From Thermoplasmata archaeon (GTDB taxonomy: Archaea > Thermoplasmatota > Thermoplasmata > Lutacidiplasmatales > UBA184): 64,000 nt of DNA. The notes under the pieces were generated by a model. That model saw nothing but the letters and a program-made list of their open reading frames with translations. It was not told where the DNA came from and did no database searches. Positions 371-18,691 of the stretch are shown here, piece by piece (the stretch's first letter is position 1; each line of letters begins with the position of its first letter). A program made the translations under genes and the position numbers. The stretch is taken from NCBI GenBank assembly GCA_046704665.1, contig JBJKRJ010000001.1:57255-121254 (forward strand). The letters are read 5' to 3'.

Positions 371-2386
371 TCACCGCTCGGGTGTGCGGACGATCGGACC
401 GGTGACCGACGGGCCCTTGTCGAACGCGCCGATCGGGCTCACCGTGTGCGTGCGGGCCCCGCCGAACGGGTGGAAGGGCCGACCGTTCCCGGTGTAGAAC
501 TTCGAGAAGTACTCCACGAAGATGAGCCGCGCCCCTTGGATCCCGGGTTCGAAGACCCCGAGGATCACGTTGAACGACTGCCCGATCACGATGATCACGG
601 CCCCGGCGATGATGCCCGAGATCGCCCCGCCCAGGATGAGCCCGGCCCCGATCTGGTTGATCACGAGCGCGAGGATCACGCTGGCCAGAAGGATGCCGAC
701 GAGCCGGGTGTAGGAAAGGATGTGGCTCACGACCTCGATGAGCCCCATCATCCCCATCTGGATCCCTTCCCCGACGAGGAGCAGCAGGAGACCGGCAATG
801 ACCAGGCCGAGATAGACGTCGAAGAGCGGGTTCCCCGTGAGGGAGTCCTGCTTGTGGATGACCGCGAGCCCCAGGAAGGCGATCCCGAAGGCGAGGAGGA
901 CCCCTCCGACCTTCCCGACGACCCCCCGTGGGTGGTGATGGAAGTGGTCCTTCAGCGCTCCCATGAGGAAGCCCAGGACGACCATCCCGAGACCGATGTA
1001 GCCGGCCAGGAGGAGCAGGGTGGAGACCGTCGTGGAATGCAACGGGTCGACCGGTGCGGCGTAGCCGAACCAGGCGTTGAAGAGGTGGTAGCCGAAGAAC
1101 TCGTCCCAGAAGATCCCCAGGCCCATCGCCAGGGCGCATCCGGGCAGGATCGCCCAGGCCAGCTGCTGCATCCCTTTCGGACCCATGATCATCTTCACGA
1201 AGTTCCGTCCGAACTTCGGGAGGTAGCGCGCCGCCGGGAAGCCGGCGAGCATCCAGAGCGAGATCAGGAGGATCGTGAGCCCGTAGCCCCAGTCGCCCAG
1301 CATGAGCCCGAAGAAGAGCGGGAAGGCGATCGAAAAGACGAGGGTCGGGTCCCACTCGGTCGCCTGCGGGAGCGAATAGAACCGGATGAAGAACTCGAAG
1401 CGGCGGACCCCCTTCGGGTTGCTCATCATCGTCGGCGGTTCCTCGTGCGTCGGGACCTCGTAGAAGTAGACCCGCCCACCGGCCGTCTGGGAGACCAGGC
1501 GCTGGAGACGCTCCACGTCGCGCGCCGGGACCCAGGACTCGAGCGCGAACGCCGTGTGGCTCGCCCCGAGCTTCTGGAGGACCTCCGCCTTGCGGTTCTC
1601 GATCTCGAGCGCCTCGTCGATCGCGGCCACGGTGGGGTACCAGTCGCGGGAGATGGCGCCGAGCCGGTCCACGATCTCCTTCCGCCGGGCCGTGATCGCT
1701 CCCAGGCGGACCTCGAGGTCCGTGATCTCCTCGCGGGGGGTGCGGTCGAGGGCGGGCATCGCGGTCAGGTGCGCCCCGTTCTCCTGGGCGGCCCGGCTGA
1801 GGACGTCCGCGCCCGCGAGCCGGCTCACCACGATGAACCGCGCCTTCTCCTTCTCTCTCACGGGTCCGACGATGAAGCGGGCGTCCGCCGTTGGCGGAAG
1901 CGCGGCGCGGAGGGGAGCAAGCCGTTCGGGCGCGACCTCTCCAAAGAACGCGAGAAAGCTCGCGGACCGCAGGTACTCCAGACGCTCGGGATAGAAGTCG
2001 AGCCGTCGGAGGAGGTGGAGGGTGTCGTTGGTCGCCTTCAGTTCGGTCTGGAGCCGATCGTCCTCCCGCGCGAGCTCCCCGACCTCGGCGTCGATCGGGA
2101 TCCGCTCGGCCGCGGCGAGGATGTCGGCGACGGACTCGAACCGCTGCGGGTGGGGGACCGGGACCTTCGGAAGGACGCTCATGAGGCCGCGGAAGCGCAG
2201 CGTCTCGTCGGCCACGTGCCGGAGCGTCTCGGGTCCCCGTTCGGGCGTCAGCTCCGCCATCGCCTCGGGCCGGAGCGGCTCGATCTGCGCCACGTGGAGA
2301 TCGTGGAGGGTCGTGAGGACCCGCTCCTCGTCCTCGCGTAGGCCGAGGAAGCCGATCTTGACCATCCGGACCGGTCGCAGCACCAT
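371..2386 (-). CDS. atpI: A1AO ATP synthase subunit I (membrane a-subunit)
   Basis: 671 aa. Soluble N-terminal half, then a C-terminal half with multiple TM helices ('LFFGLMLGDWGYG', 'VLGFLMGALKDH'). Sits immediately downstream of atpH in the operon. Confidence 0.85.
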   Translation of the reverse strand: MVLRPVRMVKIGFLGLREDEERVLTTLHDLHVAQIEPLRPEAMAELTPERGPETLRHVADETLRFRGLMSVLPKVPVPHPQRFESVADILAAAERIPIDAEVGELAREDDRLQTELKATNDTLHLLRRLDFYPERLEYLRSASFLAFFGEVAPERLAPLRAALPPTADARFIVGPVREKEKARFIVVSRLAGADVLSRAAQENGAHLTAMPALDRTPREEITDLEVRLGAITARRKEIVDRLGAISRDWYPTVAAIDEALEIENRKAEVLQKLGASHTAFALESWVPARDVERLQRLVSQTAGGRVYFYEVPTHEEPPTMMSNPKGVRRFEFFIRFYSLPQATEWDPTLVFSIAFPLFFGLMLGDWGYGLTILLISLWMLAGFPAARYLPKFGRNFVKMIMGPKGMQQLAWAILPGCALAMGLGIFWDEFFGYHLFNAWFGYAAPVDPLHSTTVSTLLLLAGYIGLGMVVLGFLMGALKDHFHHHPRGVVGKVGGVLLAFGIAFLGLAVIHKQDSLTGNPLFDVYLGLVIAGLLLLLVGEGIQMGMMGLIEVVSHILSYTRLVGILLASVILALVINQIGAGLILGGAISGIIAGAVIIVIGQSFNVILGVFEPGIQGARLIFVEYFSKFYTGNGRPFHPFGGARTHTVSPIGAFDKGPSVTGPIVRTPER

Positions 2387-3546: not shown

Positions 3547-4987
3547 TCACACGCCAGCGGCCGGTGGATGCGCCCGGAACTGGGCGATGAACTCGGGGCG
3601 GATCCGCTTGAGCTCGGAGTCGGGAAGGTCGGAGAGGATGTCCCAGGCGATCCCGAGGCTCTGGTCGATCGTCCGGTCCTCGTCCGGCCGCTGGTTGACG
3701 AACTCCTTCTCGAACCGGTCGGCGATCTTGAGGTAGAGCCGGTCGACGGCGCTGAGCGCCTCCTCGCCGACGATCGCGGAGAGGGCCCGCTGGTCCTTCC
3801 CGGTCGCATACGCCGCGAAGAGCTGGTCGGAGACGCCCCGGTGGTCCTCCCGCGTGCGGTCCTTGCCGATCCCGAGGCTCATCAGGCGCGACAGGCTCGG
3901 AAGGACATCGATCGGGGGGTAGATCCCCTTGCGCTGGAGCTCCCGGCTGACGTAGACCTGGCCCTCCGTGATGTAGCCGGTGAGGTCGGGGATCGGGTGC
4001 GTGACGTCGTCGGCGGGCATCGTGAGGATCGGGAGCTGCGTGATCGATCCCTTCCTCCCGTGGATCTTCCCCGCCCGCTCGTACATCGTCGCGAGGTCGG
4101 TGTAGAGGTACCCCGGATACCCCCGACGGCCCGGGACCTCGTCCCGCGCGGCCGAGACCTCCCGGAGCGCTTCGCAGTAGCTCGTCATGTCGGTGAGCAC
4201 GACCAGCACGTGGAGGTCCTTCTCGTAGGCGAGGTACTCCGCGGCGGTGAGCGCCATCCGCGGGGTGACGACCCGCTCCATCGACGGGTCGGAGGAGAGG
4301 TTCAGGAAGACGACCGCCCGTTCGAGGGCGCCGGTCGACTCGAACTCCCGGAGGAAGTAGTTCGCCTCCTCGCTCGTGATCCCCATCGCGGCGAAGACGA
4401 CGGCGAACCCCTCGCTCGAGTTGCGCAGCTTCGCCTGCCGGACGATCTGCGCGGCGACCATGTTGTGGGGGAGCCCCGACGCCGAGAAGATCGGGAGCTT
4501 CTGACCGCGGACGAGCGTGTTGTTGACGTCGATCGTCGAGATGCCGGTCTGGATGAACTCGCTCGGCTCCTGGCGCGAGTACGGGTTCATGGCGTTCCCG
4601 ACGATCTCGAGCCGTGTCTCGCTCACGATCTTCGGGCCGCCGTCGCGCGGCTCGCCGAGGCCGTTGAAGACGCGCCCCAGGAGCTCGTCGGAGACCGCGA
4701 GGGTCGCGACCTCGCCGAGGAACTTCACGCTCGTCTTCTCGACGTTGATCCCCATCGTGGGGCCGAAGACCTGGACGATCGCGAGGCCCTTCCTCGAATC
4801 GAGGACCTGGCCCTGCCGGCGCTCGCCGTTCGGGAGCGCGATCTCGACGATCTCTCCGTAGGCGGCGTTCGCGACGTCGCGGACGAAGATGAGCGGACCC
4901 GCGACCCGGTCGATCGTCCGGTAGTCGATGGGGACCTCGGGCACGGCCTTCGCCGCGCGGACGCCCTCGACGGCCATCAGGGACCTC
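3547..4987 (-). CDS. atpB: A1AO ATP synthase subunit B (regulatory)
   Basis: '[10 protein letters not shown]...[19 protein letters not shown]...[13 protein letters not shown]...[22 protein letters not shown]'. The ATG at 4987 was located by hand; the 946-aa ORF call is an upstream extension through atpA. Confidence 0.95.
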
Positions 4988-6731
4988 CCGTCGCGGCGAC
5001 GGCCTGGGTCATATCGTGCTCGAGCTGATCGAACTGGGTCTTCATCTCCTTCTCCGGGATCCACTTCATCCGCGAGATCGTCGTCCGGACCGGGAGCTTC
5101 TGCAGCTGCGCGACGGTCGCCCCGCGGGCGACCGCTTCCTGCTCCCGCTCGCCGAACTGGAGGATCGTCCGCAGCATCCGCATCTGCTTCTGGATCGACG
5201 TGTAGGTGTCGACCTCGTCGTACGCGCTCTGCTGGAGGAAGTCCTCCCGCAGCATCCGCGCGACGTCGAGCGTCGCCTTCTCGCGTTCGGGGAGCGCATC
5301 GACCCCGACCAGCTGGACGATCTCCTGGAGCTCGGCCTCCTTCTGGAGCGTCTCGAGCGCCTTCTGACGGAGCTGGACGAACTCCGAGGAGAGCTCCTTC
5401 GTATACCACGGACCGAGGTCCCCGCCGTACAGGGAATAGCTCTGGAGCCAGTTGATCGACGGGAAGTGACGGCGCGAGGCGAGCGACGCGTCGAGCGCCC
5501 AGAACACCCGGGTCACGCGCAGCGTGTTCTGGCTCACCGGCTCCGAGGTATCCCCGCCGGGTGGCGAGACCGCACCGATCACCGAGACCGAACCCGTCCG
5601 GCCCTCGGGCGAGACGGTGATGACGCGGCCGGAGCGCTCGTAGAACTCCGCGACCCGCCGTCCGAGGTAGGCCGGGTACCCTTCCTCGCCCGGCATCTCT
5701 TCGAGCCGTCCGGAGATCTCCCGCATCGCCTCGGCCCATCGGCTCGTCGAATCGGCCATCAGCGCGACGTCGTAGCCCATGTCGCGGTAGTACTCGGCGA
5801 TCGTGATCCCGGTGTAGACGCTCGCTTCCCGAGCGGCGACCGGCATGTTCGAGGTGTTCGCGATCAGGATCGTCCGTTCCATCAGCGGCCGCTTCGACTT
5901 CGGGTCCTGGAGGTGCGGGAACTCGGTGAGCACTTCGCACATCTCGTTCCCCCGTTCGCCGCAGCCGACGTAGACGACGATGTCGGAGTCGGCCCACTTC
6001 GCGAGCTGCTGCTGGGTGACGGTCTTGCCGGACCCGAAAGGTCCCGGGATGCAGGCGGTGCCGCCCTTCGCCACCGGGAAGAACGTGTCGATGACCCGTT
6101 GGCCCGTCACGAGCGGGATATCGGGAGGCAGCTTCTGCGCGACCGGGCGTGGGACCCGGACGACCCACTTCTGCGAGAGCAGGAGCGGCACGGATCCGGA
6201 GGAGGTCGCGACCGATCCGATCGGGTCGTGCACCGTGTAGGTCCCGCTCTTGAGCTCCTTGAGCGTCCCGCGGACCCCCGGCGGGACCATGATCTTGTGG
6301 AGGACGATGGGGGTCTCCTGGACTGTCCCGAGGATCGCTCCCGGGGTGACCTCGCTCCCGACCTTCGCGGTCGCGGCGAACTCCCACTTCGCGTTCGGGT
6401 CGAGCGGCGCGGCGACCGAACCGCGCGTGATGAAATCCCCGGAACCCTTCTGGATCACGTCGAGCGGACGCTGGACGCCATCGTAGATCGATTTGACGAG
6501 GCCGGGGCCGAGCTCGACGCTGAGCGCCTGACCGGTGTTCTCAACGGGGTCCCCGGGACGGATCCCGGTCGTGTCCTCGTAGACCTGCACGGTCGCGGCC
6601 CCCCCCACGAGACGAATGATCTCCCCCACGAGACCGAGCGCGCCGACGCGGACGACATCGTACATCTTCGCTTCTTGAAGGCCCTCGGCGATGACGACCG
6701 GACCGGTCACGCGTGCGACGACTCCTTCCAT
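4977..6731 (-). CDS. atpA: A1AO ATP synthase subunit A (catalytic)
   Basis: Walker A 'GPFGSGKTV' and '[18 protein letters not shown]'. 584 aa. Overlaps the atpB start by 11 nt. Confidence 0.95.
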
Positions 6732-7172: not shown

Positions 7173-7451
7173 CTACTTGTACACCGAGTTGTGGACGTTC
7201 CCTTCGTCGTCCGTGATGAGGATGCACTCCCCTTCGCACTCGAAGAGGCACGCCTCGCAGACGATGCAGTCCGGTCCGTGGATCGCGACCGACTTCTCTC
7301 CCCGGAACTGGAACTTGGCGCCGACCGTGGGGTCGTCGACGACCTCGGGGAACTGATCGCGGGGTTTCAGCTCGAAGACATTCACCGGACAGACATCGCG
7401 GCAGTGGGCGCATCCGGTACATTTCGCCATCTCGATGTCGACCGTGACCAT
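7173..7451 (-). CDS. 2x[4Fe-4S] ferredoxin
   Basis: 92 aa with two cluster-binding motifs: 'CTGCAHCRDVCP' and 'CIVCEACLFEC'. Confidence 0.8.
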   Translation of the reverse strand: MVTVDIEMAKCTGCAHCRDVCPVNVFELKPRDQFPEVVDDPTVGAKFQFRGEKSVAIHGPDCIVCEACLFECEGECILITDDEGNVHNSVYK

Positions 7452-7664
7452 GAGTGAACCCCCGCTCCGAATTCAACACCGTCCCATATTTAGGATGTGT
7501 CGTCAAATGAACGACATCTCGGCTCCCCCCGGTCCCCCCTGCCCTGCGGCCCGGGGGCGCGATGGGGCCAAAAGTCTTGGCGACCTTCAGAACGTTGTGC
7601 CACGATTCGACACTCCTTCTTGGTTCGCCCCTCCCGGGGGAAGCGTACCGGGTCTCCGTTTCCC

Positions 7665-9092
7665 ATGAGTCGCCCGTCGCTGCCTTCCCGGGAGATCCCC
7701 TCGCTCCTCGACGGGCTCGCCGACCCTCGGCCGGCGGAGCGACGTCGGGCCGCCCAGCGGCTCGGCCGTCTCGCCCCCGCCTCCGCCCGGGGGTCGCTCG
7801 AGTCCGCCCTGGAGGATGCCGACGTGGGAGTTCGTCTCGCCGCCGCCGCCGGTCTGGGGGCGATCGGGAGGCCGGCCAGCCGTCGGCCTCTCGAGCGCCT
7901 CCTCGAAGACCCCCACTGGGTGGTCCGGGCCCAGGCGGCCTACGCCCTCTCCCGGCTTGCGCGGAGCTCCTCGGCCTCCCGGCTCGAACGCCGGCTCGCC
8001 GAGGACTCGAGCGCGCTCGTGCGCAACGCGTCGGCGCTCGCCCTCGGTCGCATCGGCCTCCTCCGTTCCGCCCCGGTCCTCGAACGCGCCCTCGACGACC
8101 CCTCGGACCGGGTGCGCCGGGAGGCGATCATCGCGCTCGAACGGATGGGGGAACCCTCCGTTCCCGAGAAGGTCCGGCGGTTCCTGGACGACCCCGTCCG
8201 TCGCGTACGGATCGCCGCGGCGGTGGTGCTGGGGGCCCGACGCGATCGGGCGTCCGTCCCGAGGCTGCTTGCCCGGCTCGCCGACTCGGATCTCTGGGAG
8301 CGGCCGGCGCTCCTCGTCGCGCTCGGCCGGATCGGCGCCCCCGAGGCCGACTCGGCGCTCGCGCACGCGGCCGAGGATCCGATGCGGTCGATCCGCGTCT
8401 GTGCGGTGCACGCCCTCGCCGAGATGCGCTCGCCGCGGACCGTGAAGGTGGCACGGGCCCGGCTCTCCGACGGCGCCTGGGCGGTACGGGGGGCCGCCGC
8501 GCTCGCCCTGGGGAAGGTCGGCGACCGGGGGAGCGCCCGGCTTCTTGGACCCCTGTTACGCGACCCCCACCCGTGGCCGCGTCGGGGTGCGATCTACGCG
8601 CTCGGCCAGTTGGGGGACCGAACCGCCCGCCGGGAGATCCGTCGCGCCATGGAGGACGACGACCCCGAGGTCCGACTGGCGGCGATCTGGGCGCTCGGCC
8701 GGCTTTCGGACCCGGAAGCCCGCGACGCCCTCACCCGGGCCCTCGAGGAGAACCTCCGGGGACCCGCGACACGGCGCGGGCGGACCGTCGCCCGAGGGGA
8801 AGGCGCGATCCGGCTGATCTCGGACGCCGACAGCCGGCTCTTCGACACCCTGGTCGATGCCCTCGGCGCGCTCCAGCGCCGATCCCGACGCCCCGAGACC
8901 GACGTCGCGCTCCGGGCGGCCGCAGCGTCCGTTCCGGCCCCGGAGCTCGACCGCCCGGCGCGCCTTCCGTCCCCCCTCGGCCGGGGGGAGGACCCGACGA
9001 TCACCCGTCGCGAACTCTTCGCGCGCGCGGGGGTACGTCCGATCGGTCCGCCCCCGTTTTCAAAAGGTACCCCATGGGACGAAACGATATGA
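7665..9092 (+). CDS. HEAT-repeat (PBS-lyase-like) protein, paralog 1
   Basis: Tandem ~31-aa repeats of the form 'LxDxDxxVRxxAAxALGxIG' (>10 copies). Start taken as ATG 7665 ('MSRPSLPSREIPSLLDGL'); the 7497 extension is low-complexity. Confidence 0.7.
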   Translation: MSRPSLPSREIPSLLDGLADPRPAERRRAAQRLGRLAPASARGSLESALEDADVGVRLAAAAGLGAIGRPASRRPLERLLEDPHWVVRAQAAYALSRLARSSSASRLERRLAEDSSALVRNASALALGRIGLLRSAPVLERALDDPSDRVRREAIIALERMGEPSVPEKVRRFLDDPVRRVRIAAAVVLGARRDRASVPRLLARLADSDLWERPALLVALGRIGAPEADSALAHAAEDPMRSIRVCAVHALAEMRSPRTVKVARARLSDGAWAVRGAAALALGKVGDRGSARLLGPLLRDPHPWPRRGAIYALGQLGDRTARREIRRAMEDDDPEVRLAAIWALGRLSDPEARDALTRALEENLRGPATRRGRTVARGEGAIRLISDADSRLFDTLVDALGALQRRSRRPETDVALRAAAASVPAPELDRPARLPSPLGRGEDPTITRRELFARAGVRPIGPPPFSKGTPWDETI

Positions 9093-9143
9093 GCTTCGAA
9101 GCTCGCGGACCGGGGGCGCCCGGGCCCCGGGAGTAGCTAGCGG

Positions 9144-10430
9144 ATGTGGGAGTGGATCGTCCCGGCCCTCGTCTTCGCGGTCGGTCTCGTGCCGGTCTCC
9201 TACTTCCTCGTGAACGCCCGGCTCTCCCGCCGACGTAGCCGCAGTCGGCGCGTCCTTCCGGCCCCCCCCTCCGACGTCACGATCGTCGTCCCGGTCCACG
9301 CCGAACCGGTCGATTCGTTCCGGGACACGATCCGCTCGCTGGCCCGGCAAGGCTGCCGAGTGGTCGTGGTCGGGGACGGGTGCGACGCGCCGTACCGCTC
9401 CCTGGCCGCACGTGAGGGAGCGGAGTTCGTCGCGCTCGCGATGCGGGGAGGAAAGAAGCGCGCGCTCGCCGCGGGCGTTCGCGAGGTCCGCACCCCCTAC
9501 GTGGTGTTCGTCGACAGCGACACGATCCTGCCGGACGGTGCGGTGGAGACCCTCTCGACCTACTTCGAAGAAAGGGTGGGGGGCGTCGGCGCGAACCTCT
9601 ACGTGCAACGGACGGGAACGATCGCCGCGGGCTCGGCGGAGTTCTTCGAGCGCTCGCGGGAGGTCGTCCTGCGCGCGATGTCCTCGCGGGGGAACGTCCT
9701 CTACCTGGACGGGGCCTGCATGATGTTCCGCACCGAGCTGATCCGGTCGTTCGTCGCCTCCGACGAGTTCCTCGACCTCCGGGTCCTGGGGCGACCGACC
9801 CGGCTGGGCGACGACTGGCTGCTCACCGACCACGTGCTCGACCAGGGGTACCGCACGGTGAAGGCCTACGATGTCGGAGCGATCACTCAGGCTCCGGCGA
9901 GCCTCGCCGATCTCGCCCAGAAGAACGCCCGATGGGCGCGATCGAGCTGGATCCGGTTCGGTCGGTACGTCCGCGGACAAGGACCGAAGCACGCGGGCCT
10001 CTTCTACCGCTGGGAGCTCCTCGCGACCTACGCCCTTCCAATCATCTCGCTCGCCCTGCTCCTCGCGCGCCTACCCGAGCTGATCCACGGGGTCAGCGTC
10101 GGCTTCGACCACGCGGTGCACCTGATCTCCCGCGGCGCCGCTCGGTGGGACCTCTGGGCCCGGTTCGGTTCGCCGGACCGGCTCTTCTTCGCCACCCAGA
10201 CCGTGACCGGTCTGGTCGGCACCGGCTCGTTCGTGGAGGCGGTGGCCGGTCGGCTCCCCCGACACACGCGGCTCCGGACGCTCATGTGCGGGGCCATCAG
10301 TTCCGGCGTGCTCTTCGTGATGATGATCTACGGGCTCCTGACGTTCTGGCAATCGCCTTCGTGGAGGGAGGACGAGAGTCCGTTGGCGGAGATCGGACGC
10401 TCCTCCCCCGGCGTCTTCGACCACGTCTGA
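9144..10430 (+). CDS. Processive family-2 glycosyltransferase (CesA/NodC/HAS-like synthase) with C-terminal TM segments
   Basis: N-terminal TM helix, 'VVVGDGCD', DxD 'FVDSDTILP', 'GACMMFRTE' and the QxxRW motif 'QKNARW'. Further TM helices follow the catalytic domain. Confidence 0.75.
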   Translation: MWEWIVPALVFAVGLVPVSYFLVNARLSRRRSRSRRVLPAPPSDVTIVVPVHAEPVDSFRDTIRSLARQGCRVVVVGDGCDAPYRSLAAREGAEFVALAMRGGKKRALAAGVREVRTPYVVFVDSDTILPDGAVETLSTYFEERVGGVGANLYVQRTGTIAAGSAEFFERSREVVLRAMSSRGNVLYLDGACMMFRTELIRSFVASDEFLDLRVLGRPTRLGDDWLLTDHVLDQGYRTVKAYDVGAITQAPASLADLAQKNARWARSSWIRFGRYVRGQGPKHAGLFYRWELLATYALPIISLALLLARLPELIHGVSVGFDHAVHLISRGAARWDLWARFGSPDRLFFATQTVTGLVGTGSFVEAVAGRLPRHTRLRTLMCGAISSGVLFVMMIYGLLTFWQSPSWREDESPLAEIGRSSPGVFDHV

Positions 10431-10544
10431 GGCGCCACCGGACCGCCGGGGCCCCGCGCGACCCCCTCGCCCCGGGACCGGAGGGGGCTGGCGCCTCCTC
10501 CGCAGGGATTAACCGGAGGAAGTACCTCCCGGTGGTCGCGGTCC

Positions 10545-11333
10545 GTGAGCGACGTCCTCCTCGGCACGAGCGGCTGGGACTATCCCGAGTGGGTCGGCCG
10601 CGTCTATCCGCCCCGCGGCATCAAGGACCGGCTGCCGTACTACGCGAAGATGTTCTCGATCGTCGAGGTCAACTCGACGTTCTATCGATTGCCGCCGCCC
10701 GGCGTGGCGGCATCCTGGGTGCGCCGCACCCCGGCGAAGTTCCGTTTCGCGGCGAAGTTCCCCCAGACGATCACGCACGACCTCCGTCTGGTCGGGACCG
10801 ATGAGGAGCTCGCCCGGTTCCTGACCGTGCTGAAACCGATCCGGGAGGCAGGCAAGTTCGCCGCGGCCCTGCTCCAGCTGCCGCCGTCGCTCCCGTTCGA
10901 GGCCGCGACGGTCCGGCGCTTCTACGAGACGCTGCCCCAGGACCTCCCGGTCGCGGTCGAGTTCCGCGAGCGTTCCTGGCTCGTTCCCGAGTCGTACGCG
11001 CTCCTCCGGGAGTTCGGCCTCGCCCATGCGATCGTGGACGGTCCCCACCTCCCGATCGCGCTCGAGGTGACGGCCCCGTTCGCCTACGTGCGATGGCACG
11101 GGCACGGCAGCCCGCTCTGGTACGACTACGCCTACTCCGCGCCCGAGCTCCTCGCCTGGGTCCCCCGGGTCCGCACGCTCACGGAGAACGTGGCGACCGT
11201 CTACGGGTTCTTCAACAACCACTTCCGCGGGGACGCGGCCGTGAACTGTCGCACGCTCTCCGAGGAGCTCGGGCTCCCTCCGCCCTCCGGGAGCGGTCGT
11301 CTCGACGCCTCGTCGCTCGCCCGGGACGACTAG
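10545..11333 (+). CDS. DUF72 family protein (YecE-like)
   Basis: 'LLGTSGWDYPEWVGRVYPP...LPYYAKMFSIVEVNSTFYRLP' is the canonical DUF72 N-terminus. Confidence 0.8.
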   Translation: MSDVLLGTSGWDYPEWVGRVYPPRGIKDRLPYYAKMFSIVEVNSTFYRLPPPGVAASWVRRTPAKFRFAAKFPQTITHDLRLVGTDEELARFLTVLKPIREAGKFAAALLQLPPSLPFEAATVRRFYETLPQDLPVAVEFRERSWLVPESYALLREFGLAHAIVDGPHLPIALEVTAPFAYVRWHGHGSPLWYDYAYSAPELLAWVPRVRTLTENVATVYGFFNNHFRGDAAVNCRTLSEELGLPPPSGSGRLDASSLARDD

Positions 11334-11433: not shown

Positions 11434-12318
11434 ATGTTGGACGACGAACCGCTGGCGCCGGCATGGCCGGTCGAGGGATCGGAGGAGTCCGAGCCCCTCC
11501 TACCGTTTCCCCGGGAGCTCCCGACCCCGTCCGCCCGTTCGGTCCGCCCCTCCTTCGGGCTCCGGCGCGTGGCGCGGCCCCCGCGGGTCCGTGCCGCGCC
11601 GCTCCTTCCCTCCGAACCGGCGTTCTTCCCCTGGCTGGCGCGCCGCTTCGCGCCGGGCGAGGTGACGCTCTGGGTCGGTCCCGGCGTGGCGGTGGAGCCG
11701 GTCCTCGAGCTCCTCTACGCGGGGAACGCCGTGGTCCGGGGTCGGCTCTCGCTCCTCGAAGGGGCGAACCGGTTCCACCCGTACCGGATCGGGGAGCTCG
11801 GCCGTGCGTTCGGGGTGGACGCGACCCGCACGCTGCAAGGGATCCGTCTCGCCCGTGCGTTCACCGCCTACCAGATGGTCGCCCTCGTCGACGGGTGGGC
11901 GAGCGAGGCGCGCCGGCATTCCCCGACCCTCCTCGTCGGCCACGACCTCCCGGCGCTCTTCACCGCCGACGAGGTCCCCCCCGAGGAGCGGACGGCGCTC
12001 CTTCGCCACGTCGCCCGCGGGCTCGCCCTCCTCCTTCGCGCGACCCGCCTTCCGCTCCTCCTCACGCTCGGACCCGGCGGGGCGGAGGGGTTCCCCGGCC
12101 TCGCCGACGAAGGCCCTCGCTGGTCGGACCTCATCACGTTCACCCGCGGTCCGTCGACCCTGCGCCTCCGCTCGTTCCGGGACGATGCGCGCATGACGCT
12201 CGTCCCGCGCCCCACGGGCCAGAAAGGCCTCCACGAGTTCGGCGACGTTTCCGCCGAGGAGGTGATCGCGTGGGCCGTACCGCCCCGACGTACCGCCAGG
12301 CGCTCGAGGAGCGGATGA
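11434..12318 (+). CDS. Hypothetical protein with RecA/RadB-like layout but degenerate Walker A ('GPGVAVEP', no Lys)
   Basis: 'TLWVGPGVAVEPVLELLYAG' aligns by eye with 'IxExxGxxGxGKTQ'. Walker-B-like 'YQMVALVDGWAS'. Codon usage is coding-like. The stop overlaps the downstream ATG as ATGA. Confidence 0.3.
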   Translation: MLDDEPLAPAWPVEGSEESEPLLPFPRELPTPSARSVRPSFGLRRVARPPRVRAAPLLPSEPAFFPWLARRFAPGEVTLWVGPGVAVEPVLELLYAGNAVVRGRLSLLEGANRFHPYRIGELGRAFGVDATRTLQGIRLARAFTAYQMVALVDGWASEARRHSPTLLVGHDLPALFTADEVPPEERTALLRHVARGLALLLRATRLPLLLTLGPGGAEGFPGLADEGPRWSDLITFTRGPSTLRLRSFRDDARMTLVPRPTGQKGLHEFGDVSAEEVIAWAVPPRRTARRSRSG

Positions 12319-12533
12319 AGCGCTGGGACGAGTTCGCGCGCCTCCTCACGACACCGGAGGAACGCGCCGCGTTCGACCTCGTCCGCACCGGGGCCCGACG
12401 CTACGCCGCCCAGGCGACGTACGTCGGAAGCCCCGACCTCCTCGAATCGATCCTCCTCTCGGTCCTCACCGACCTCGCCGCGCGGATCCGGGCGGAACCG
12501 CTCGAGCGGGCCGAACGGGCGGCCCGACGCTAG
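12270..12533 (+). CDS. Small helical protein (87 aa from GTG, or 72 aa from the ATG at 12315), unknown function
   Basis: 'GGAGGTGA' SD 5 nt before the GTG at 12270. Ends 4 nt before the PolB start. The N-terminal part of ORF call 11463..12533 is low-complexity and was discounted. Confidence 0.3.
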   Translation: MGRTAPTYRQALEERMKRWDEFARLLTTPEERAAFDLVRTGARRYAAQATYVGSPDLLESILLSVLTDLAARIRAEPLERAERAARR

Positions 12534-12537
12534 GACC

Positions 12538-14874
12538 GTGGACGGATCGGCCCGGACGCCCGACGGCTGGCTCCTCGACGTCACCGAGAGCGCGGACGGC
12601 CGCTCGGTCGTCCTCTGGGTGAAGTCGCGACGGACCGGGCGCGTCCGGAGGACCGCCGTGGAGTACCGCCCTCCGTTCCTCGTCGGAGGATCGCGCGCGG
12701 CGCTCACCGACCTCGCGCATCATCTCCGAACGCTCCCGACGGTCGCGGAGGTCACGCTCGCGTCGGGAGCTCCGTCGCTCTTCGACCGGCGGGTCCGCCC
12801 GGTCCTCACGGTCACTCCCGAGCGCAACCCGGTCCGCCGCACGCTCGCCCGGACCGTCGATGCGTTCGGCCGCTACGAGTCGTTCACGCTGTACGACGTC
12901 GACCTCGGCCCGCCGCAGCTCTACCACCTTTCCCACGCGCTCTATCCGTTCGCCCCGGTCGTCGGCACGGGCGCGTCGCTCGTCGCGACCGAGCCCGCCG
13001 AAACGATCGACTACGTCCCGCCGCCCCTCCGTTCGGCCCCGTTCGAGGTCCGCATCGCCGGCGAGCGACGGGGCCGCATCCCGCCGCCGTCCGGCCGCAT
13101 CGGTTCGGTGCGGCTCGGCGAGGCGACGCTCGAGGGGTCGGACGAGGGGGAGCTCCTGCGTGCGCTCGGGAGCGAGCTCGCGCGAAGCGACCCGGATCTC
13201 CTCCTGACGCAGGGCGGGGACTCGTTCGACCTTCCGTGGCTGTACCGGCGGGCGGCCGCGTGCGGGCTCGGGCCGGAGGAGTTCGCGCTCGGGCGGGAGC
13301 GGGTCGGCTTCGCGCCGGCCCGGCCCGGCCGCTCGTTCGAGTCGTACGGTCGGGTCCTCCATCGCTCGGCGCTGTATCCCGTTCCCGGTCGGTTCCACAT
13401 CGACCGGGAGAACTCCTTCCTCTACCGGGACGCGGAGATCGCCGGCCTGGTCGACGCGTCACGTCTCTCCCGGCTCTCTCTCCAGACCGTGGTACGCCAG
13501 TCCCCGGGGACCTGCTTCACGGCGATGGAGATGGCCCACGCCCTCGCGCTCGGGGCGCACGTCCCGTGGAAGAAGAACCGCCCCGAGGAGTTCCGGCGCG
13601 GCGACCGCCTGGTCGTCGCCGACCGGGGCGGGGTGATCTTCCTTCCCCCGGTCGGGCTCCACGACGCGGTCGAGGAGTTCGACTTCGCGAGCCTCTACCC
13701 GCACATCATGGTGCGGAAGAACCTCTCCGCCGAGACCCTCGAGTGCCGGTGCTGTCCCCGGAGCCCGATCCGTGCCCCCGGCCTCGGCTACCGCTCCTGC
13801 ACGCGACGGGTCGGTCTCATCCCCCGCACGCTCGCCCCTCTCCTCGCCCGGCGGCTCGCCTACAAGGCGGCGCTGAAGCGGCCGGGGATCCCCGCCGAGG
13901 AGGCAACCGAGCTCCGCCGGCGGGTCCGGATGCTCAAGTGGATCCTCGTCACCGCGTTCGGCTACCAGGGCTACCGGAACGCCCGCTTCGGGCGGATCGA
14001 GTGCCACGAGGCGATCAATGCCTACGCGCGCGCGCTCCTCGCCGCGCTCCTTCCCGAGGCCGAGCGCGCCGGCTACTCGGTCCTCCACGGGATCGTCGAT
14101 TCGCTCTGGCTGCGCCCTCTCGACCCTGCGCACCCGCCGGACGCCGAGTCGTTCGCCGAGAGGATGAGCGAGCGGTTCGACCTCCCGCTCGGCTACGAGG
14201 GCCGCTACCGCTGGATCGTCTTTCTGCCGGCGGTGACGCACGGCCTCGGGGTCCCGAACCGGTACTACGGTCTCTACGAGAACGGGGAGTACAAGCTCCG
14301 CGGGATCGGGGGCCGACGGCACGACACGACCGGTCTCGTCCGCCGGTTCGAGAGCGAGGTCCTCGCGCTCTTCCGGCGCGCGCGGAACGCCGAGCAGCTG
14401 CGCGCGCTCCTCCCGCGGGCCCTCGCGCGCGCCGACCTCCTCGCCGCGCGCCTCCGGGCCGGGGACTGGCCCGTCGAGGAGCTCCTCGTGAGCCACCGGA
14501 TCGGCCAGGCACCGCAGGCGTTCGTGACGTTCACCGACTCGGTCGCCGCCCTCCGCCAGCTCGCCGAGGCCGGGGCGCCGCGCGAGGCGGGCGAACTGGT
14601 CCGGTTCGTCCTCCTCGACCGGCGGAACCGCTCGTTCCGCCACCGTGTCCGGGTCGCCGAGCTCCTCACCGGCTCCGAACGGTACGACGTCGACGCCTAC
14701 CTCGAGCTCCTCGCCCGGGACGCCGAGACCCTCCTCGCCCCGTTCGGGATCGACCGGGCGACCCTCCTCGCACGGTGGGGCGCCGGAGCGCCTCCCGAGC
14801 GGGCCGCGTACCGTTCGCCCGAAGGGGCGTCCCAATCGGAGCTGCCGTTTGTGGCCGGGACCACCGGTACCTGA
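12538..14874 (+). CDS. Family-B DNA polymerase homologue with disrupted catalytic motifs (predicted polymerase-inactive; PolB2-like)
   Basis: Motif A 'DFASLYPHIM' is intact. Motif B 'KWILVTAFGYQGY' has lost the N and Y of KxxxNSxYG. Motif C 'HGIVDS' has Ile in place of the first Asp of YGDTDS. Exo II 'GGDSFDLPWL' is present. Exo I 'FEVRIA' has lost the Glu of FDIET. The Cys cluster 'ECRCCPRS...YRSC' after motif A is as in archaeal PolBs. Confidence 0.8.
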   Translation: MDGSARTPDGWLLDVTESADGRSVVLWVKSRRTGRVRRTAVEYRPPFLVGGSRAALTDLAHHLRTLPTVAEVTLASGAPSLFDRRVRPVLTVTPERNPVRRTLARTVDAFGRYESFTLYDVDLGPPQLYHLSHALYPFAPVVGTGASLVATEPAETIDYVPPPLRSAPFEVRIAGERRGRIPPPSGRIGSVRLGEATLEGSDEGELLRALGSELARSDPDLLLTQGGDSFDLPWLYRRAAACGLGPEEFALGRERVGFAPARPGRSFESYGRVLHRSALYPVPGRFHIDRENSFLYRDAEIAGLVDASRLSRLSLQTVVRQSPGTCFTAMEMAHALALGAHVPWKKNRPEEFRRGDRLVVADRGGVIFLPPVGLHDAVEEFDFASLYPHIMVRKNLSAETLECRCCPRSPIRAPGLGYRSCTRRVGLIPRTLAPLLARRLAYKAALKRPGIPAEEATELRRRVRMLKWILVTAFGYQGYRNARFGRIECHEAINAYARALLAALLPEAERAGYSVLHGIVDSLWLRPLDPAHPPDAESFAERMSERFDLPLGYEGRYRWIVFLPAVTHGLGVPNRYYGLYENGEYKLRGIGGRRHDTTGLVRRFESEVLALFRRARNAEQLRALLPRALARADLLAARLRAGDWPVEELLVSHRIGQAPQAFVTFTDSVAALRQLAEAGAPREAGELVRFVLLDRRNRSFRHRVRVAELLTGSERYDVDAYLELLARDAETLLAPFGIDRATLLARWGAGAPPERAAYRSPEGASQSELPFVAGTTGT

Positions 14875-15015
14875 TACGCCCCCGCTCGGTCGACCCGGCG
14901 TGCGCCGCCGCTCCGACCGGACCGGACGCCCCCGTCGCCTTCCCCCGCCGAGCCTGCGGGCTCCTCGGGACTCCTCCCGTTCCGCGTCCGAGCGCGCGGC
15001 CGCGATCCGGGAGAG

Positions 15016-16390
15016 CGTGACCGTAGGGTACCCGACCGACCTGGGCCCGCTCCTCGTCGCGCTGTCGGACCCGGTCGCCGGGGTCCGTCAGACCGCCGCG
15101 ATCGCGCTCGGCATGCTCCGCGACCCCCGCGCCCGGACGACCCTCGAGACCGTGCTCACCGATCCGGACGTGTCGGTCCGTGCGTCGGCGGCGGAGGCGC
15201 TCGGGGCGATCGGGCACGTCGGGAGCTGCGCGGCCCTGGAGACGGCCCTTGCCGACCGGGAACCGGCCGTACGGGCCGGGGCCGCCCGCGCCCTGGCGAG
15301 CATCGCGCGCCCCGGCTCGGTCGCGAGCCTCAAGCGGCATGTGCACGACCCGTCGCCCGAGGTCCGTCGCGCGGTCGCCGGGGCGCTCGGACGGATCGCC
15401 TCCGACGAAGCGCTCGACGTCCTCCACGGGATGCTGCGGGACCGTTACGACCGGGTGCGCCGGGAGACGGTCTTCGCCCTCGGGCGTCGTGGCACGCCGG
15501 AGGAGCTCGCGACCCTCCGGGCGCTCCTCGACGACCCGTCCCGCCGCGTCCGGGTGGCGGCGGCGATCGTGCTGGGCCGCCACCGCGACCGTCCGAGCGT
15601 GCCGGCGCTGCTCGGGCGCCTCGAGGAACCCGCGACCTGGGAGAAGCCGGCGGTCCTCGTGGCGCTCGGCCGGATCGGGGCGCCCGAGGCGGTCCCGGCG
15701 CTCGTGACGTTCAGCGACCACTCCGCCCACTGGATCCGCGTCTGCGCGATCCACGCGCTCGGCGAGATGCGGGCCGCCGAGGCCCGCACGGTCGCCCGCG
15801 CCCATCTGAAGGACCCGGCGTGGGCGGTGCGCGGCGCGGCCGCGACGGCGCTCGGCGAGGTCGGAAGGTCCGACGACCTCACCGCGCTCCTCGGGCGGTT
15901 GCGCGACGAGCATCCGTGGCCCCGGCGGGGGGCGATCTACGCGCTCGGCCGTCTCGGCCTGAGCGAGGCCGCCCCCCAGATCCGGGAGGAGCTCCAGGAC
16001 CCGGCCGCCGAGGTCCGGCTGGCGGCGGTCTGGGCGCTCGGCCGCCTCGAGGACGACGGGGCCCGGGACGAGCTCGCGAGGATGCTCCACGAGTTCCGCC
16101 CCGGGGGGCCGCTCGACCCCGCGTCGAACGGTGACGACGCCCTCGTCTCGGACACCACAGGCCGGGTCTTCGATGCCCTGGTGCAGGCGCTCGGCCGTCT
16201 CGCGCACGGGACCCCGGACCCGCTCGTGCGCCGGGCGCTCCTGGACGCCCGCCGCCGCCTGAGCGACGACGAGCTCGATCGCGCGGCCCGTCTCCCGATG
16301 CCCGAGGTCGAGGTCGACCGCGCCCCGCCGACCGTCCGTCATCTCTTTGAGGTTGCGCTCCCCGGCCCCGCCGAGGACGAGGAGCCGTGA
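15016..16390 (+). CDS. HEAT-repeat (PBS-lyase-like) protein, paralog 2
   Basis: Same repeat architecture as 7665..9092 ('DPDVSVRASAAEALGAIG', 'DPSPEVRRAVAGALGRIA', and others). Start uncertain: GTG 15016 proposed; the 14645 ORF start overlaps the PolB 3' end and is low-complexity. Confidence 0.6.
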
Positions 16391-17328
16391 ACGTACGTGA
16401 CCTCCGCGCGCATGACGCTCCCGATCTGCTCCGGTTCCTCCAGAACTACTTCCCGGAAGAGGAGGCGCTCCTCGGGACCCGTCCCGAGGGATTCCAGAAG
16501 GTCGTTCAGCGGATCTTTCGCTGGGACAGCCGGCTCATTCTCGGTGTGCTGCGGCTCTTCGGACGACCGTTGTTCCGATTCTTCGTCGTCGACGACGGAG
16601 GCCGCGTCGTCGCGACCACCCTGCTGACGTTTCCGAAGGAGGCGGGCTACCTCAGCATGGTCGTCGTCGATGCGAGCTACCGTCGGCGCGGGATCGCCCG
16701 GGAGCTCCTCGAACGAGCGCGGAAGGCGACCCGGAAACGCGGGAAGCGGTTCCTCGCGCTCGACGTCCTCGCCGCCAACGCCCCCGCGCGGACCCTCTAC
16801 GAGCGGGAGGGGTACCGACTACTGCGCACCACGGGCTACTTCGTCCACGACCACCCCGACGCCCTCCGCCCCGCCCCGGCGGTGGTCCCGGGATTGCGCC
16901 CGTTCGAGCGTCGGGATGCCCGGGCGCTCGCCGCGATCGCCCGACGCGGACGGCCGGCCGCCCTGAACGAGGTCCTGCCGATGACCGAGCGGGAGCTCAC
17001 GGGCTCTTCCTGGGAGGGACAGTTGCTGGCGAGCTCGATGGCGGCGTGGGTCCTCGACGACGGCTCCGGTGCCGTCGCCTGGATCTCGGCCGCCGTGAGC
17101 AGCGCCACCGCAGCCGGTCACATCGCGAGCCCGATCATCGACCCGAGCGTAGCACCCGCGAGGGCGGAGGGCCTGGTGCGGACCGCCGGCGCCTGGTGCG
17201 CGGAGCGAGGGGTCGCCCGGCTCCTCACGATGACGCCCGAGGAGAACGCTCGCGGCCGGGCCGCCCTCGAGGCGACGGGGTTCCGTCATGCGATACCGGT
17301 CCTCACCCTCTCCCGACCCGTCGACTGA
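16387..17328 (+). CDS. GNAT family N-acetyltransferase (two-lobed)
   Basis: Acetyl-CoA-binding motif 'VVVDASYRRRGIARELLERA'. The GTGA start overlaps the HEAT paralog 2 stop. Confidence 0.7.
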   Translation: MNVRDLRAHDAPDLLRFLQNYFPEEEALLGTRPEGFQKVVQRIFRWDSRLILGVLRLFGRPLFRFFVVDDGGRVVATTLLTFPKEAGYLSMVVVDASYRRRGIARELLERARKATRKRGKRFLALDVLAANAPARTLYEREGYRLLRTTGYFVHDHPDALRPAPAVVPGLRPFERRDARALAAIARRGRPAALNEVLPMTERELTGSSWEGQLLASSMAAWVLDDGSGAVAWISAAVSSATAAGHIASPIIDPSVAPARAEGLVRTAGAWCAERGVARLLTMTPEENARGRAALEATGFRHAIPVLTLSRPVD

Positions 17329-18691
17329 CCCCGGCCGTCGCGGCCGGGGGCTCGACGTCTACCTCTTCCCGGCGGTCGTCGGCGGGGGCCTCGGCGACAT
17401 CGAGGAAGTGCTCGCCGCCGGCCGACGGCTCGCGCGCGCCGGCTTTGAGGTGTGGCTGTTCCGCGCGCCCGGTCGATCTCTACCGAGATCGGTCGACGGC
17501 CCGTGGGATTGGCCGCGCCTCACGCGGACCGACCGGCTCCGTCCCCACGGGTCCGGGGCGCTCACGATCACCCCCTCCTGGGGAGTGAGCGCCGCGCCGG
17601 ACCGACCCGGCCGGTACGGCCGGGGAGGTCCCTGGAGCGAGGAGGCGGAGGCGATCGAACGGACGTACGGGCCGGCCCGCACCCTGCACGTGAGCCTCGA
17701 GGAGTTCGCCCGGACCCTCTCCAGCCCCCGGGAGAACCGTGAGCGTCTTCGAGAAGGCGGAGTACGCGCGCGCGACGTCGTCGCCCGCCTGCGGCAGTCC
17801 CGGAGGCGGGGCGAGGTCGCAACGTTCCGGCGCGCCTTCGTGCGGTTCCGTGCGTTCGATCGGCCGAACGTCCTCCACCTGTTCGCGACGTTCCGCCCCG
17901 ACCGCGGGTTCGCGCGCGAGTTCCCTTGGGCGGTCCAGGTCGGCCCTCTCTGGCCCGGCCGTCGTCCTCGCTGCCGATCCCGGCGGTCGCGGGACCGGCC
18001 CAGGGAGTGGGTGTGGTACGCCAGCCCCTCGACCGCGGAGCGGCTCCTGCCCGAGGTGACGCGGGGCCTCCACGGCCTCCGTCCTCCGGTCCACCTCTAC
18101 GTGCGCGCGCCCCGACCCTGGCCCGGGACCGTACCGTCCGGGCCGGTGACCCTGCGAACCCGGCCGATCCGATCCCGTACCTGGGAGGAACGGTTCCGGT
18201 CGGCGGAGGTACGGATCGTCACCGGGAGCCGCTCTCTGCTCGAGGCGATCGAGCTCGGGGGAAGGTTCCTCTACTTCAACGGGGTGCTCGGCCCGGGGAC
18301 CCGCGCCCGGCGTCACCGACCCGAGAAGCTGCTCGCGCTCCTCGAGTTCGGACGGGCCGCCGGGCTTCCCGAGGATGTGCGACGGGATCTCGCGGACTTC
18401 TCGCGTGGCCGACGCGTCGCCGAGATCGTCCGGCGGGCCGCGACGTGTGCCGGCGGATGGGACCGGTTCGAACTGCCCCGCCGTGCGGTCGCCTTCCGTC
18501 CCCCGTACGACGATGCGGGCGAGCTGATCCGCTCGCTGGCGCGGACGATGGCGCGACCCGAGGTCGACGCCCGAGCGCTCGTGGGAGAGCTGCGTCGGGT
18601 CTCGAATGACTTATCGGCCGGGGCCGCTCCGGGCGCCGATGCCGGGCGACGTCGCCAGCCCTCCCGCGGTGGCCCGCGCGATCGTCGGTAG
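17288..18691 (+). CDS. Hypothetical Arg-rich protein with weak GT-B glycosyltransferase-like termini
   Basis: N-terminus 'VYLFPAVVGGGLGDIEEVLAAGRRLARAGFEV' resembles a GT1 N-terminus; C-terminus 'IVTGSRSLLEAIELGGRFLYF' resembles a GT-B C-terminus. The middle is low-complexity. Weak call. Confidence 0.3.
   Translation: MRYRSSPSPDPSTDPGRRGRGLDVYLFPAVVGGGLGDIEEVLAAGRRLARAGFEVWLFRAPGRSLPRSVDGPWDWPRLTRTDRLRPHGSGALTITPSWGVSAAPDRPGRYGRGGPWSEEAEAIERTYGPARTLHVSLEEFARTLSSPRENRERLREGGVRARDVVARLRQSRRRGEVATFRRAFVRFRAFDRPNVLHLFATFRPDRGFAREFPWAVQVGPLWPGRRPRCRSRRSRDRPREWVWYASPSTAERLLPEVTRGLHGLRPPVHLYVRAPRPWPGTVPSGPVTLRTRPIRSRTWEERFRSAEVRIVTGSRSLLEAIELGGRFLYFNGVLGPGTRARRHRPEKLLALLEFGRAAGLPEDVRRDLADFSRGRRVAEIVRRAATCAGGWDRFELPRRAVAFRPPYDDAGELIRSLARTMARPEVDARALVGELRRVSNDLSAGAAPGADAGRRRQPSRGGPRDRR

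Follow-up and report, generated by a model that had tools for sequence, protein, structure and literature searches.

Class I hyaluronan synthases (HAS), represented by the Chlorella virus enzyme CvHAS and by Xenopus HAS1, have six transmembrane (TM) helices and three interface helices in about 570-600 amino acids (aa), and NodC has one N-terminal and three C-terminal TM helices. In BcsA-BcsB and PgaC-PgaB, the gene of a membrane synthase of glycosyltransferase family 2 has as its same-strand neighbor that of a noncatalytic repeat or scaffold protein, and the accessory subunits BcsB and PgaB are extracytoplasmic and genetically inseparable from their synthases. A further enzyme of relevance, the family 2 membrane mannosyltransferase PcManGT of Pyrobaculum calidifontis (PDB 6yv7), uses GDP-mannose as the sugar donor (PMC12595478). 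The present work concerns a stretch of 64,000 nucleotides (nt) from a Thermoplasmata archaeon (GenBank assembly GCA_046704665.1, contig JBJKRJ010000001.1), called the window throughout, in which the gene of a HEAT-repeat protein, HEAT1, is followed on the same strand by that of a membrane glycosyltransferase, GT2. An original prediction, made from the sequence, took this pair to be the first copy of a duplicated HEAT-glycosyltransferase module and the HEAT proteins to be dedicated glycosyltransferase partners analogous to BcsB and PgaB but unrelated to them in fold. Such a HEAT-GT2 pairing would have represented a new type of synthase accessory subunit, but it was not upheld. The explanation that we hold to be the likelier one is that two unrelated genes happen to be adjacent at a junction prone to rearrangement, GT2 being a self-sufficient single-gene membrane glycosyltransferase and HEAT1 an unrelated scaffold.

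Results

HEAT1 and GT2 vary independently at one junction

About 150 related loci, screened by tblastn with the proteins of the window, made up the comparison set; labels such as L002 denote these fetched loci. In relatives sharing both the ATPase-ferredoxin block and the block from DUF72 to g467 (Table 1), we scored the content of the junction between the ferredoxin and DUF72 genes. HEAT1 and GT2 are both present in the window and in four further genomes (L002, L070/L071, L072/L073, and L074/L075). GT2 alone is found in seven (L003, L004, L005, L006, L007, L008, and L011), with the ferredoxin gene 150-220 nt upstream, and HEAT1 alone is found in L078, L080, and L096, where the proteins are 57-61% identical to HEAT1 compared to 49% to its paralog HEAT2, which is present there too. 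In L079, HEAT1 adjoins the ferredoxin gene in an unrelated context. Neither gene occurs in 18 loci, and in 7 of these, the junction contains a minus-strand gene for seryl-tRNA synthetase. The ferredoxin-DUF72 gaps of 1.5 kb without a HEAT or GT2 match proved to contain this synthetase gene.

The four junction states are interleaved on a neighbor-joining tree of the family-B DNA polymerase PolB, which served as the species proxy: L006 (GT2 alone) is the sister of L090 (neither gene), L002 (both) is that of L004 (GT2 alone), and L003 (GT2 alone) is that of L093 (neither). Since all four states exist and are intermixed on this tree, HEAT1 and GT2 are neighbors and not a working pair. Fisher's exact test for an association between them gave a p value of 0.07, rising to 0.22 when the clade of the window was counted once. 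Co-occurrence in other genomes, on which the original prediction had staked the pairing, does not hold, as the presence of one gene at this syntenic site does not depend on that of the other, and HEAT1 lacks the conserved co-occurrence and adjacency with a synthase that would mark a dedicated accessory protein. It also lacks the membrane anchor or export signal of an accessory subunit: as the prediction had itself remarked, no TM segment or signal peptide is seen in HEAT1 (maximum 19-residue hydropathy of 1.05; no segment at 1.6), so that the protein is not extracytoplasmic and the likeness to BcsB and PgaB is lost.

It is improbable, in our judgment, that GT2 has in HEAT1 a dedicated partner, scaffold, or regulator in the cytoplasm, one that arose in this lineage as a duplicate of HEAT2, is cotranscribed with GT2, and plays a role like that of the accessory subunits of bacterial synthases. 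Some observations do speak for such a partnership and hence weigh against our explanation. Gene order, strand, and a short spacer of 51-82 nt are kept in five genomes even though the GT2 proteins are just 63-79% identical, and HEAT1-GT2-DUF72 is unbroken in L074/L075 despite a rearranged downstream region. Absence from the junction is furthermore not the same as absence from the genome (GT2 lies elsewhere in L161), and a partnership in trans is conceivable. The isoelectric point (pI) of HEAT1, 11.3 versus 6.2 for HEAT2, would fit a protein that docks to the synthase or to an acidic membrane surface, and all five genomes with both genes have exchanged the canonical Q of the QxxRW motif of GT2 for K, R, or H. 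This exchange was considered as a signal of coupling to HEAT1 and rejected, as L014, L018, L037, and L065 show it too and are without HEAT1 next to GT2. Against the partnership stand also the HEAT1 orthologs that lack a neighboring GT2, whether they lie at this junction or in another context, the GT2 genes without HEAT1 in seven syntenic genomes, and the absence of any HEAT match adjoining GT2 in approximately 57 more distant loci, a single weak match, in L068, lying on the opposite strand at a distance of about 1.4 kb. No significant association is obtained with the clade collapsed, and the two genes never overlap, the spacer in the window being 51 nt (9093..9143) as originally described, so that there is no translational coupling of the kind seen in HEAT2-GNAT-g467 (see below). 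HEAT1 could have been recruited to GT2 within the clade of the window, although the evidence is against any generality of such a link. Because the pairing fails, a module annotation is not warranted for this locus.

The junction itself (7452..10544 in the window, also L104, L136, and L148) is a rearrangement hotspot that can be empty or hold the seryl-tRNA synthetase gene, GT2, HEAT1, or both of the latter. The ferredoxin-ATPase block lies downstream of the methylpurine glycosylase (MPG) gene in L076, L077, and L151. In L078, two copies of the 92-aa ferredoxin gene (5372..5650 and 7374..7652) flank HEAT1, which may have moved along with a ferredoxin copy.

GT2 carries its own upstream element

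A conserved 19-nt element, GGGACRAAACGMTWTGAGC, precedes GT2 by 33-52 nt with 0-5 mismatches in 10 of 11 close loci. It keeps this distance whether HEAT1 is present or not, which is a further point against the partnership. The copy in the window, GGGACGAAACGATATGAGC, is the only one there; it ends 49 nt before the GT2 start and overlaps the HEAT1 stop codon (9090..9092), and in L070 and L072, the HEAT1 stop codon lies a few bases ahead of the element. No such element was found between HEAT1 and DUF72 in loci without GT2. Among 2000 random 200-nt windows of this sequence used as a control, the best match had at least 6 mismatches, except in three windows that held the element itself. Because the element goes along with GT2, GT2 is probably transcribed as an independent unit. 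The CGAAA with an A/T-rich core resembles an archaeal pair of B recognition element (BRE) and TATA box, and the element is probably a BRE/TATA-like promoter or regulatory site from which GT2 would be transcribed. A 14-nt palindrome after the HEAT1 stop codon, GAGCTTCGAAGCTC, was considered as a terminator and rejected; it is not conserved in L070, L072, and L074 and has no T-run.

GT2 falls in the HAS/NodC branch

That GT2 is a membrane glycosyltransferase, as first proposed, was borne out by matches to the Pfam families Glyco_tranf_2_3, Glycos_transf_2, Glyco_transf_21, and Glyco_trans_2_3 and by a hydropathy profile with an N-terminal TM segment and additional C-terminal hydrophobic segments. 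In an AlphaFold2 model (pLDDT of 90.3 and pTM of 0.87), one N-terminal and three C-terminal long helices are of the membrane type, and interface helices and the TM bundle pack on the glycosyltransferase domain as in the synthase fold. A Foldseek search with this model placed hyaluronan synthases at the top, and a phmmer search of the PDB returned them as significant full-length relatives, with the aligned pairs DSDT/DSDT, LGDDWLLT/LGDDRHLT, and KNARWARS/QQTRWTKS for GT2 and HAS, respectively. A profile of the GT2 family matched Xenopus XlHAS1 with an E value of 7e-21 (profile positions 99-330) and CvHAS with an E value of 1e-14 (97-357); PcManGT, ArnC, DPMS, and GtrB matched it in the nucleotide-binding half only. 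Of the NCBIfam models, that of NodC (TIGR04242) ranks first with every one of the 32 family members examined (best E value of 4e-27). The GT2 of the window scores 61.3 bits against it (E value of 8e-17), and the equivalog cutoff is 550 bits, so it is not a member of NodC proper. We therefore place GT2, with its minimal four-TM layout resembling that of NodC, in the HAS/NodC branch of the membrane-integrated synthases. It represents a new, uncharacterized archaeal clade inside a well-known superfamily and is an ortholog of neither NodC nor HAS.

The motifs give a similar picture. Seven residues are invariant in an alignment of 32 GT2 sequences (D78, D124, D126, G222, D224, R263, and W264), and at least 90% of the sequences keep D223. 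GT2 thereby has the first nucleotide-binding aspartate as well as the DxD motif, and the string GACMMFRTE, residues 190-198, is found as the original prediction had it. The TED motif expected there is absent in the alignment to HAS, its place being taken by a catalytic-base motif of the HAS/NodC type, GDD, in which LG222DD224W is aligned to LGDDR of HAS. The QKNARW read as a processive QxxRW signature does exist (residues 259-264), but it is a QxxxRW in which Q259 comes one residue early, and the canonical Q column holds K260 in alignments both to HAS and to 31 homologs. The in-register Q(Q/R)xRW is therefore lacking in the protein of the window, while its R and W are invariant in the family. 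The Q column holds R or H in the closest relatives and Q in most other members, with a family consensus of RQNVRW. Deeper members carry GDDRQLT and QQVRW(A/S)R, and we take GDDRxLT and QQxRWxRS to be the NodC/HAS/chitin-synthase versions of these motifs.

On this basis, GT2 would act as an autonomous inverting glycosyltransferase of the NodC/HAS type. D78 and the DxD motif would bind a UDP-sugar and a divalent metal, and the donor would most likely be UDP-GlcNAc or a close analogue, because the motifs DSDT, GxCxx(F/Y)R, GDD(R/W)xLT, and xxxRW(A/S)RS are of the HAS/NodC type. The aspartate D224 would serve as the base that deprotonates the acceptor hydroxyl, and W264 would be the platform for the terminal acceptor sugar. 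A β-linked oligosaccharide or short polymer might then be made at the cytoplasmic face of the membrane and, much as in NodC, stay within or cross a minimal bundle made up of four TM helices and two interface helices. That GT2 forms an oligomer or polymer is, on balance, slightly favored.

Several points count against a polymer-forming enzyme. The canonical Q of QxxRW is replaced by K, R, or H in the protein of the window and its clade, and this loss could alter the handling of the acceptor; it is uncertain that four TM helices alone assure a polymer-conducting channel, and literature searches found no biochemical data on any member of the family. Searches on archaeal NodC, HAS, and chitin synthase, on HEAT proteins with glycosyltransferases, on Thermoplasma glycolipid glycosyltransferases, and on archaeal glycolipid synthase returned nothing relevant. 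It is possible, though we think it unlikely, that GT2 is nonprocessive and transfers just one sugar, either to a dolichol-linked glycan or to a membrane lipid, which would yield a glycosyl-archaeol or a glycerol dialkyl glycerol tetraether (GDGT) glycolipid; this is the type of role suggested for PcManGT, a minimal archaeal enzyme resembling cellulose synthase, and it recalls family GT21. The match to Glyco_transf_21, the ceramide glucosyltransferase family (E value of 1e-10), and the small number of TM helices would suit this, as would the K or R at the Q position in the clade of the window, GT21 and MGlcDAG synthases carrying (Q/R)xxRW. The gene is also housekeeping-like, standing alone among core genes in many Thermoplasmata, and has homologs in Sulfolobales, where tetraether glycolipids are likewise abundant; several Thermoplasmata lack cell walls and rely on glycolipids. 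However, it is the acceptor-side half, with GDD, xxRW, and the interface and TM helices, that matches HAS in the profile comparison above, PcManGT, DPMS, ArnC, and GtrB being alignable only over the other half. NodC as the best curated family for every member and the motifs of the deeper members likewise argue for the HAS/NodC type that we prefer.

GT2 is widespread in Thermoplasmata

The GT2 family comprises 85 protein clusters, and species-representative genomes yielded 68 loci that carry it, almost all of them from Thermoplasmata and a few from Sulfolobaceae and Desulfurococcales, so its description as rare in archaea was overstated. In 34 Thermoplasmatales-type loci (among L017-L069), ftsZ, a split transketolase, and a transaldolase are encoded directly downstream of GT2, and in 14 of these 34, a gene for an NAD-dependent sugar epimerase/dehydratase lies just upstream. 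In L161, GT2 comes after RpoE'/Spt4/DUF359/S24e/S27e. No accessory gene is conserved across these contexts, and a HEAT gene within 8 kb of GT2 was seen neither beside ftsZ nor in L161. The clade is thus class-wide in Thermoplasmata and could supply a component of their envelope or glycolipids that is so far missing, and the adjacency to ftsZ in Thermoplasmatales merits follow-up.

The HEAT proteins are ordinary solenoids

The claim of more than 10 PBS-type HEAT repeats in HEAT1 proved correct. The protein matches HEAT_2 (E value of 1e-80; 266.6 bits with a cutoff of 27.7) and HEAT_PBS (E value of 6e-24; 82.3 bits with a cutoff of 20.9), and eleven repeats of about 31 aa, starting at residues 20, 51, 82, 113, 145, 176, 207, 238, 269, 300, and 331, were read from the sequence, eight of which are recovered by a pattern search; a C-terminal tail of about 110 aa follows them. 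HEAT2, also with 11 repeats, scores 247.8 bits for HEAT_2 and 103.2 bits for HEAT_PBS, both above the Pfam gathering thresholds. It is indeed a paralog, 49-50% identical to HEAT1 over nearly the full length including the nonrepeat tail, but the start first given for it, 15016, is out of frame; the gene begins with the GTG at 15017, behind a GGGAGAG box, with a possible alternative in-frame GTG at 14900. HEAT1 orthologs (56-75% identity) form a clade apart from all HEAT2 sequences, including distant ones, and the duplication therefore predates the clade of the window. HEAT1 has been repeatedly lost or relocated.

Sequence matches of HEAT1 in the PDB are alphaRep designs, deoxyhypusine hydroxylase (DOHH), CpcE, and YibA. 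A DOHH-like function of HEAT1 and HEAT2 (match to PDB 4d4z with an E value of 1e-8) was rejected, since metal binding in DOHH uses HE pairs and the repeats carry VR at these sites. Both are ordinary PBS-type solenoids, and HEAT1, a soluble basic α-solenoid, is probably a protein-binding scaffold unrelated to GT2.

HEAT2 is coupled to a GNAT and a GT-B protein

Downstream of HEAT2, the arrangement of a GNAT acetyltransferase gene and then one for a GT-B-like protein (g467) stands as originally described. The HEAT2 stop codon overlaps the GNAT start codon (GTGA), and the GNAT and g467 genes overlap by 41 nt. A search with the g467 family retrieved 80 metagenome loci; where the contig reaches far enough, the GNAT gene adjoins g467 in 71 of 71, and 55 of 56 have a HEAT2-type gene upstream. 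The GNAT protein has a RimI-like N-terminal domain (Acetyltransf_1 E value of 1e-16; NCBIfam rimI E value of 1e-12, under its cutoff) and a C-terminal region of about 160 aa. The predicted GT-B fold of g467 is structurally closest to EarP, the arginine rhamnosyltransferase of EF-P. By sequence, g467 gave no match in Pfam, NCBIfam, or the PDB, and none of 32 family members had a Pfam match; a link to EarP at this level was rejected after searches by phmmer, family profile, N-terminal fragment, and Pfam at E values up to 1. There are 507 homolog clusters of g467; among 120 listed with 58-78% identity, the few that are named are Thermoplasmata, and the protein is conserved across this class.

A HEAT-glycosyltransferase link thus holds for HEAT2 and the GT-B protein and not for HEAT1 and GT2, which leaves standing only that part of the proposed dedicated partnership. 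Nor is there a duplicated module, as only the HEAT gene is duplicated and the glycosyltransferase folds are unrelated, a membrane GT-A enzyme in one case and a soluble GT-B protein in the other. HEAT2 and the products of the overlapping genes plausibly form a module for modification in the cytoplasm, with the substrate presented by the HEAT solenoid. Of the two HEAT-glycosyltransferase associations, this trio is the more promising as a genuine partnership, and it likewise merits follow-up. A bolder pair of proposals, taken jointly, strikes us as doubtful: that GT2, beside ftsZ in Thermoplasmatales, makes a chitin-oligosaccharide- or hyaluronan-like β-glycan, and that HEAT2-GNAT-GT-B is a new archaeal cytoplasmic protein-modification system with the solenoid presenting a target for both glycosylation and acetylation. 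We know of no description of such a β-glycan for the largely wall-less Thermoplasmata.

Gene layout and neighboring genes

The features of the locus are collected in Table 1. The G+C content of the window is approximately 70%, and identical or close relatives of the locus proteins come from Thermoplasmata metagenome-assembled genomes, chiefly of soil and peat. DUF72 follows GT2 as noted in the original prediction, and the block DUF72-g294-DUF8156-PolB-HEAT2-GNAT-g467-M29-MPG is kept in many related loci with long enough contigs. The ferredoxin is 70-96% identical in syntenic loci.

Table 1. Features of the HEAT1-GT2 locus, with the predicted parts of GT2 (residue numbers) and examples from related loci
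Feature	Position	Strand	Remarks
A-type ATPase operon	Beyond the ferredoxin gene	-	
Ferredoxin, 92 aa, 4Fe-4S	7173..7451	-	Fer4 Pfam families; divergent from HEAT1; one side of the variable junction
HEAT1, 475 aa	7665..9092	+	Pfam HEAT_2, HEAT, HEAT_PBS
Conserved 19-nt element	9076..9094	+	Upstream of GT2; overlaps HEAT1 stop codon
GT2, 428 aa, membrane glycosyltransferase, HAS/NodC type	9144..10430	+	Pfam, PDB sequence matches, AlphaFold2 model
GT2, predicted layout	TM1 2-28; GT-A ~40-250; interface helices 160-180, 254-276; TM 286-330, 344-368, 373-400		
GT2, motifs	D78; D124xD126 (DSD); G190ACMMFR; G222DD224; K260NARW264		
DUF72	10545..11333	+	PF01904 on identical gene call; other side of the variable junction
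g294, 294 aa	11434..12318	+	
DUF8156	12270..12533	+	
PolB, family-B DNA polymerase	12538..14874	+	
HEAT2, 457 aa	15017..16390	+	Paralog of HEAT1
GNAT acetyltransferase, 313 aa	16387..17328	+	Pfam Acetyltransf_1
g467, 467-aa orphan	17288..18691	+	GT-B fold
M29-like gene, then methylpurine glycosylase (MPG)	After g467	+	
GT2 in ftsZ context, examples	L053 9215..10369; L045 4446..5429; L030 11293..12315; L050 12170..13033		

The g294 gene, which overlaps the DUF8156 gene by 49 nt, has just a weak RadA/Dmc1-like NCBIfam match (E value of 5e-5). PolB has the motif A DFASLYPHIM and, at the site of motif C, HGIVDS instead of the usual YGDTDS. It is 72-91% identical among relatives and always lies within the block DUF72-g294-DUF8156-PolB-HEAT2; from its motifs, it may be a noncanonical or inactivated PolB paralog. 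The catalytic subunit A of the A-type ATPase contains an intein with a LAGLIDADG domain in L074/L075 (2444..5572) and L076 (14293..17184), and the copy in the window (584 aa; 4977..6731, minus strand) is intein free.

Comparison with known systems

The class I hyaluronan synthases are the best matches of GT2 in both sequence and structure. They share with it the DSDT, GxxxxYR-type, GDD(R), and xxRWxxS motifs and an architecture in which interface helices and a TM bundle are joined to the GT-A domain, and GT2 is like them a single polypeptide without obligatory partner genes. The identity is just 14-17%, however, and GT2 is smaller, with four TM helices in 428 aa; it has K where HAS has the Q of QxxRW, and the gating-loop motif WGTR of HAS was not identified in it.

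The likeness to NodC, for which there is no PDB structure, is one of sequence and profile. GT2 is similar in length to the 395-aa model, has the same count of TM helices, and carries an identical RWARS motif in register. It differs in that nod genes and a NodI/J-type exporter are not nearby and that the host is an archaeon. The similarity to PcManGT is limited to the nucleotide-binding half (E value of 3e-5; profile positions 11-149), and unlike PcManGT, GT2 has acceptor-side motifs of the HAS/NodC type.

For g467, EarP (family GT104) is the closest in fold, with a sequence relationship that is undetectable. Archaea use aIF5A with (deoxy)hypusine and not the rhamnosylation of EF-P. With BcsA-BcsB and PgaC-PgaB, the locus shares the gene of a membrane synthase beside that of a noncatalytic repeat protein on the same strand, but in contrast to BcsB and PgaB, HEAT1 is cytoplasmic and is distributed independently of the synthase next to it.

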